Below are positions 6,510 to 7,100 of a stretch of DNA of 64,000 nucleotides, one piece after another. Both the position numbers and the translations under genes were made by a program. The DNA is taken from assembly GCF_988242995.1 (NCBI RefSeq), contig NZ_OZ547043.1, one strand, 5' to 3'. The notes below the pieces were generated by a model, which saw only the letters and a program-made list of their open reading frames with translations, did not search any database and was not told the origin of the DNA. Position 1 is the first letter of the stretch; each line of letters opens with the position of its first letter.

Positions 6510-7100
6510 ATGATTAAGGTGTATGGCGTACCCGGATGGGGCTCTACAATCAGTGAGCTGATGCTAACACTGGCTGATATCCCTTATCAGTTCGTTGGTG
6601 TCAGTGGTTTTGACCACGAGGGAACTTCACGCGAGTTATTGAAAACCCTGAACCCGTTGTGTCAGGTTCCGACACTGGCGCTGGAAAATGACGAGATTAT
6701 GACGGAGACAGCGGCGATTGCATTGATGGTTCTCGATCGTCGCCCGGACCTTGCGCCACCGCTTGGGCGCGCCGAACGTCAGCAGTTTCAACGGCTATTG
6801 GTCTGGCTGGTTGCTAATGTCTATCCAACGTTCACTTTCGCCGATTACCCTGAGCTTTGGGCTCCTGACGCGCCTGAACAGTTAAAGAAGAATGTTATTG
6901 AATATCGTTTTATATCTGGTTGAATTCGCAGCTCACTGCTGAACCTTATGCGTTTGGCGATCAGCTACCCTTATCTCTGCGTTATGCGCATATGGGGACC
7001 GGGGCATGAATGGTTTCAAGATAATGCCGCGAATATCAGTGCGATTGCTGATGCTGTATGTCCGATACCAACGTTACAAGAAATACTAAAAAGGAATGCC
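6510..7100 (+). pseudogene. yncG: Glutathione S-transferase-like gene, disrupted (stop at 6921-6923; downstream GST-like sequence continues in shifted and then original frame)
   Basis: N-terminal thioredoxin-like GST domain is intact for 137 aa, then TGA. Frame +2 from about 6902 encodes …YIWLNSQLTAEPYAFGDQLPL… (GST C-terminal-like motif) to a stop at 7007-7009; the original frame then reads …WGPGHEWFQDNAANISAIADAV…KRNAII to the stop at 7098-7100. Confidence 0.55.

Follow-up and report, generated by a model that had tools for sequence, protein, structure and literature searches.

The window, a stretch of 64,000 nucleotides from contig NZ_OZ547043.1 (RefSeq assembly GCF_988242995.1), carries the remains of yncG, a gene for a glutathione S-transferase (GST)-like protein, immediately upstream of a variable Rhs island. 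The features at this locus are as follows.

4745..6244, minus strand: ansP, L-asparagine permease (499 aa), the conserved divergent neighbour, which fixes the identity of the locus
6501..6506, plus strand: GAGGGG, 3 nt 5' of the ATG, a likely ribosome-binding site judging from its sequence
6510..6923, plus strand: 5' yncG remnant, a 137-codon ORF from an ATG start to TGA 6921-6923, with the GST N-terminal thioredoxin-like domain
6903..6908 (6903^6904), no strand: junction of a 7-bp deletion, ATCGAAA lost, equal to codons 132-134 of intact yncG
6904..6966, plus strand: 63-nt segment in the ancestral yncG frame (window frame +2) according to the alignments, encoding SFYIWLNSQLTAEPYAFGDQL
6921..6923, plus strand: hidden out-of-frame TGA inside the ancestral TGG TTG AAT, which terminates the ORF
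6948-7109, plus strand: distal ORF of 53 aa with its ATG at 6948 and no Pfam match
6966..6967 (6966^6967), no strand: junction of an 11-bp deletion that begins at codon 155 according to the alignments
6967..7109, plus strand: 3' yncG remnant in frame 1, C-terminal residues 160-205 (…YLCVMRIWGPGHEWF…KRNAII), ending at TAA 7107-7109
7521..8657, plus strand: ISAs1-family (H-repeat) transposase gene with an in-frame TAG at 7797-7799, the start of the variable Rhs island downstream of yncG

Identity and setting of the locus

The gene had been named GST-like yncG from the letters of the sequence, and this identity was correct: it adjoins ansP and aligns with yncG of K-12 (WP_000598857.1, 205 aa, 'glutathione S-transferase family protein'). 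In window and K-12 alike the gene lies between ansP and the rhs island, and the start codon and the sequence preceding it are shared; the 20-nt upstream stretch in which GAGGGG sits equals that of K-12 except for one earlier base. The gene order in K-12 is yncE, ansP (divergent), yncG, yncH and an rhs pseudogene, and the first three follow in the same order in the window, where positions 3400-7107 were 96.7% identical to yncE-ansP-yncG of K-12. Nucleotide colinearity with K-12 and the conserved position divergent from ansP together mark the gene as the yncG orthologue. When positions 6400-7200 were compared by megablast with 5,426 complete RefSeq E. coli genomes, matches were found in 4,616, and the full-length matches were annotated as yncG in every case among the matches listed. 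The remaining genomes, about 810 (~15%), gave no match to this segment.

Colinearity between K-12 and the window stops exactly at the yncG stop codon (7107-7110), which is TAA in the window and TGA in K-12. The window has no yncH but an ISAs1-family transposase gene in its place. Beyond this point K-12 has yncH followed by a truncated rhs pseudogene, and the window has the ISAs1 pseudo-transposase followed by a complete Rhs gene; PAAR and VgrG take this place in O145, Nissle and GN04275. Because the downstream content varies among strains and colinearity ends at the yncG stop, the 3' end of yncG forms the boundary of a hypervariable island. Its position there may account for the 3' third being the most divergent part of yncG. 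The rhs loci of E. coli are variable (PMC2935791), and yncG borders one of them.

Several elements elsewhere in the window are listed here.

9079-13772, plus strand: Rhs module, comprising a full-length Rhs core protein (1403 aa, from 9079; exact sequence on only 22 public contigs) and a pentapeptide-repeat ORF
13840-13948, plus strand: match to group II intron D1-D4-2 (Rfam, 48 bits; gathering score 36)
32880-35927, plus strand: fdnG ORF, apparently split (195 aa + 803 aa), with a SECIS element at 33462-33520
40997-41588, minus strand: IS200-type element with a 152-aa Y1 transposase (Pfam Y1_Tnp, 126 bits)

The ISAs1 gene is split by its TAG into a DDE_Tnp_1_assoc part (7521-7796) and a DDE_Tnp_1 part (7800-8654); in the intact ISAs1 copy at 14358-15494 the residue at the TAG position is Trp. 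Further downstream, the stop codon of the Rhs gene overlaps the start of the 161-aa pentapeptide-repeat ORF (13287-13772, plus strand), in a position like that of an Rhs immunity gene. The group II intron match lies between the Rhs module and the intact ISAs1 transposase. No other intron domains were detected within 13200-14500, and the listed ORFs of at least 40 aa in 13250-14400, judged from the ORF list, included no look-alike of an intron-encoded protein, so that the match looks like an intron fragment.

The break in fdnG should not be confused with a lesion of the yncG type. Rfam places a SECIS_3 element (84 bits) across the junction of the two ORFs, and the split presumably reflects the selenocysteine TGA known from formate dehydrogenase-N rather than a pseudogene. 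At the 5' end of the IS200-type element is the Hfq-binding sRNA STnc490 (146 bits). This element probably explains the multi-copy and plasmid matches obtained in the search with 39001-64000. Ten window proteins were looked up in a collection of 15 billion proteins, and only the 346-aa ORF at 37955-38992 (minus strand) was without an exact match, which could be due to a wrong choice of start codon or to a private variant. The other nine all bear Escherichia coli names, and a Shigella origin, under which pseudogenes would have been expected, was rejected on this ground.

Two deletions within yncG

The 137-codon ORF that had been described from the sequence, with its GST N-terminal domain and its stop at TGA 6921-6923, was confirmed by the ORF list and its translation. 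The C-terminal PYAFGDQL motif was likewise present in the +2 frame from about 6902, where the translation is ISFYIWLNSQLTAEPYAFGDQLPLSLRYAHMGTGA followed by a stop. The original frame does resume with WGPGHEWF, reading YLCVMRIWGPGHEWFQDNAANISAIADAVCPIPTLQEILKRNAII and then a stop, but the stop is not at 7098-7100, where the bases are GCC. The true stop of the resumed frame 1 is TAA 7107-7109, and the feature therefore ends at 7109 rather than 7100.

Six alleles were aligned: the window, K-12 and O145 (both intact), NRZ14408, Nissle and GN04275. The 603 bases of yncG aligned end to end with the intact orthologues except for gaps, and relative to K-12 and O145 the window had exactly two (7 and 11 bp), without any nonsense substitution. 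K-12 is thus colinear with the window in DNA but the window, lacking 7 + 11 bp, encodes only 137 aa. The protein does not naturally end at residue 137, as the intact orthologues run for 205 codons in one frame. Residues 1-133 of the 137-codon ORF are colinear with YncG and are followed by four out-of-frame codons (FISG) and the TGA. When the 18 missing bases were re-inserted, a single open frame of 205 codons was obtained, with 16 residue differences from K-12 YncG.

The sequence around the first deletion in the intact alleles is GAAT-ATCGAAA-ATCG, and the lost ATCGAAA lay between two ATCG direct repeats 7 bp apart, of which the surviving ATCG is at 6904-6907. The second deletion left a different footprint. 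In K-12 and O145 the eleven bases missing at 6966^6967 are AACGCTGGTGG; these exact bases are those of K-12 and O145, since no intact copy of the window haplotype was recovered. In the window haplotype (GATCAGCT…ACCCT) the junction shows no more than 1 bp of microhomology and is followed directly on its 3' side by two substitutions (ACCCT vs ACTGT).

Of the explanations put forward in the sequence-only reading, two nearby compensating indels was the one borne out by the orthologue alignment, with a reservation about "compensating". Because 7 and 11 bp sum to 18 bp, frame 1 resumes after 6966; yet from the ATG the 63 nt at 6904-6966 fall in the wrong reading frame, which exposes the hidden TGA, and with a stop between the two deletions the full-length protein is not rescued. 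The 3' remnant at 6967..7109 is not translated from the yncG start. Roughly a third of second indels would bring back the frame by chance, so the 18-bp sum calls for no special explanation.

A single nonsense mutation had been offered as another cause. TGA 6921-6923 does end the 137-codon ORF, but the same bases are found unchanged in intact K-12 and in NRZ14408, spread there over the codons TGG and TTG, and intact alleles read the stretch as TGG TTG AAT (W-L-N). The triplet acts as a stop because the upstream 7-bp deletion shifts the frame, and this explanation was rejected as having almost no chance of being right. Local errors in the T-run, also suggested earlier, fared no better. The T-run CGTTTTATATC beside the first junction differs from K-12 by a C-to-T substitution only, and it has the same length in NRZ14408, which does not have the 7-bp deletion. 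This equal length and the identical independent assemblies described below led us to reject an indel or a sequencing error in the T-run. An RNA explanation for the region was also rejected, as an Rfam scan of the whole window returned nothing within 6300-7500. A promoter and terminator scan of 6250-7550 gave no more sites than were found in shuffled sequence.

Distribution and order of the deletions

The two deletions differ in how widely they occur. A 141-base probe spanning both junctions was searched in the 5,426 complete genomes and was covered in full in 156 of them. The best 40 of these 156 matches all span 148 bases, meaning that the 7 bases are kept and the 11 are missing, and all 40 carry the name 'GST N-terminal domain-containing protein'. 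The 11-bp deletion alone is therefore present in about 156 complete E. coli genomes, NRZ14408 included, where RefSeq tags yncG as 'frameshifted'. The 7-bp deletion was found in none of the 5,426 complete genomes, either by megablast with 6400-7200 or with the 141-base probe.

NRZ14408 and the approximately 155 other genomes share with the window the 11-bp deletion and the surrounding haplotype. NRZ14408 is 98.9% identical to the window over 6.8 kb and has the same downstream genes, an ISAs1 gene with an internal stop and then an Rhs gene. In contrast to the window, the genomes with only the 11-bp deletion keep ATCGAAA, and their ORF reaches a TGA equivalent to window positions 7007-7009. The window has the extra upstream 7-bp deletion and the private missense changes D30G and R116L. 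In all, 6 substitutions in about 600 nt, 3 of them non-synonymous, separate the window from NRZ14408 within yncG. On this comparison of sequences, D30G and R116L are consistent with relaxed constraint, the differences being too few for proof. The ISAs1 gene of NRZ14408 at the same position is annotated 'internal stop'; as this strain shares the internal stop, the ISAs1 pseudogene is probably older than the 7-bp deletion in yncG.

The simplest reading of this distribution, which is one of presence among strains and not a phylogeny, would place the 11-bp loss before the 7-bp loss. In the older step, the 11-bp deletion at codon 155 would have shifted the frame of the C-terminal helical domain and inactivated the gene. 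In the lineage of the window, the 7-bp deletion (ATCGAAA, codon 132) would then have occurred in a gene that was already dead, and the footprint of the ATCG repeat suggests a slipped-strand or microhomology-mediated route. After both losses the distal 46 codons are again in the frame of the start codon, but the TGA that had been hidden stops translation once 137 codons have been read. Any protein made would be a truncated one, keeping the thioredoxin-like N-domain and lacking most of the helical C-domain. The two deletions, their spread among strains and the stop are shown directly, and we infer from them the order of events, the slippage mechanism and the loss of function.

The possibility that the gene is intact in the organism, and that the gaps or the T-run are mistakes of sequencing or assembly, has two points in its favour: the T-run adjoins the first lesion, and none of the complete genomes has the 7-bp deletion. 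Against these stand the public assemblies. The independent assemblies GCA_013851005.1, ERR15423959 and SRR13674913 each match the window at 100% identity over 4.1-6.4 kb, in stretches that take in the whole yncG remnant, and the exact 137-aa product was found on 73 contigs (NCBI, ENA and Logan). The 11-bp deletion recurs in the approximately 156 complete genomes, losses of 7 and 11 bp are unlike homopolymer-type errors, and the T-run, as noted, is no longer or shorter in NRZ14408. The 73 contigs and the three identical assemblies show that the lesion is real and that this is an allele of a lineage, and we regard an artefact as extremely improbable. The best identity of the window to any complete RefSeq E. 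coli genome was about 98.5-98.7% (two 25-kb stretches tested); with no closer finished genome, its E. coli lineage is poorly represented among complete genomes. The window's own alleles were seen again on only tens of draft contigs.

Domain content and repeated loss of yncG

In Pfam searches the 137-aa ORF matched GST_N_2 (32.8 bits, cut-off 25), GST_N_3 (30.0 bits, cut-off 22) and GST_N (22.5 bits, cut-off 20.9). It thus has the N-terminal thioredoxin-like, glutathione-binding domain of the cytosolic GST superfamily; GST_N domains were the only matches in this ORF, and the 53-aa distal ORF gave none. A contiguous C-terminal all-helical domain is lacking in the window, as the ORF ends with residue 137 and what follows is divided between two frames. 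Even intact K-12 YncG scores only 17.1 bits for Pfam GST_C_2, below the cut-off of 24.9. Comparison with known structures was more informative for the intact protein: residues 3-190 align with Proteus mirabilis GST B1-1 (1PMT, E = 1e-13) and residues 6-200 with E. coli GST (1A0F, E = 1e-11). These alignments over nearly the whole length indicate that intact YncG has the two-domain GST fold, although its similarity to the two beta-class enzymes is distant. Cys10, the active-site cysteine of GST B1-1, aligns with Gly11 of YncG, while the neighbouring Ser is kept; the beta-class cysteine is absent from intact YncG and the window copy alike.

With its stop after codon 137 of 205, the window allele loses a substantial part of the protein. 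Cytosolic GSTs depend on their helical C-domain for folding, for dimerisation and for the second substrate site, and loss of function is therefore expected for the 137-aa fragment. For YncG, loss of function would accordingly be the expected outcome on this analysis of domains. The start codon and GAGGGG are unchanged, and from the sequence the fragment may still be made. YncG itself is a putative GST only: according to PMC8228696, which cites Kanai et al. 2006, YncG made in a cell-free system had no GST activity, and the same paper reports that overexpression of yncG raised H2O2 tolerance in K-12.

A gene that is still functional would need either two programmed ribosomal frameshifts or a split GST made up of the 137-aa fragment with or without the 53-aa ORF. 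The preserved start codon and adjacent GAGGGG, deletions that sum to a multiple of three, and an N-terminal GST domain that is complete by Pfam would all fit with this. However, K-12 and O145 encode the orthologue in one frame and thus show no conservation of the shifts; the ribosome would have to shift twice, once in each direction; and inspection of the sequence revealed no canonical X XXY YYZ slippery heptamer at either junction and no Shine-Dalgarno-like sequence upstream of ATG 6948. The helical C-domain is established as necessary in cytosolic GSTs, and the gene is destroyed or absent in many lineages. With neither a conserved shift nor a slippery site, yncG of the window does not resemble a gene of programmed frameshifting, and continued function by either route is very unlikely. 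No result spoke against a pseudogene. We conclude, with a probability of about 95%, that the region is a yncG pseudogene, the remains of a non-essential gene of the GST superfamily inactivated in two steps.

Other strains have lost yncG by other routes. In Nissle 1917 the gene has a +1 T insertion that creates a TAA, plus a CAG-to-TAG change; GN04275 has the same +1 insertion plus an 18-bp deletion. These lesions are unrelated to those of the window, but as in the window yncG is inactivated, and both genes are annotated as pseudogenes in RefSeq. The genes downstream in these two strains are the PAAR and VgrG genes of type VI secretion, in contrast to ISAs1 and Rhs in the window. At least five different lesions were present among the six aligned alleles. 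A 161-base probe for the Nissle lesion matched 377 records at ≥99% identity, but at this threshold alleles that have the single-base insertion look the same as those that lack it, and the figure is a hint only. The 90% protein cluster holds further shortened forms, one of which (138 aa) is on 124 contigs, although some of the shortened forms listed there are merely cut by contig ends.

These observations indicate that yncG has been lost independently in many E. coli lineages and is dispensable. Several other GST paralogues exist in E. coli. That the repeated loss reflects selection for loss in some lineages or niches, or that the 137-aa fragment retains a residual thiol-related function, seems to us improbable. 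The window shows a routine case of a dispensable GST paralogue that decays step by step beside a variable Rhs island. Pseudogenes of yncG are already annotated in related genomes and are of a kind already known; what is mildly notable here is only the nested history and a frame-restoring sum that fails to rescue the gene.

Beyond annotation the lesion has little importance. The proper annotation is one yncG pseudogene (6510-7109) and not a short 'GST N-terminal domain protein' with a separate orphan ORF. This E. coli lineage can be conveniently recognised by its 7-bp deletion. Strains with this allele would be without the potential contribution of YncG to H2O2 tolerance suggested by overexpression (PMC8228696). 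The history of an 11-bp and then a 7-bp loss offers a tidy example of stepwise decay, in which the second indel restores the frame but not the gene.
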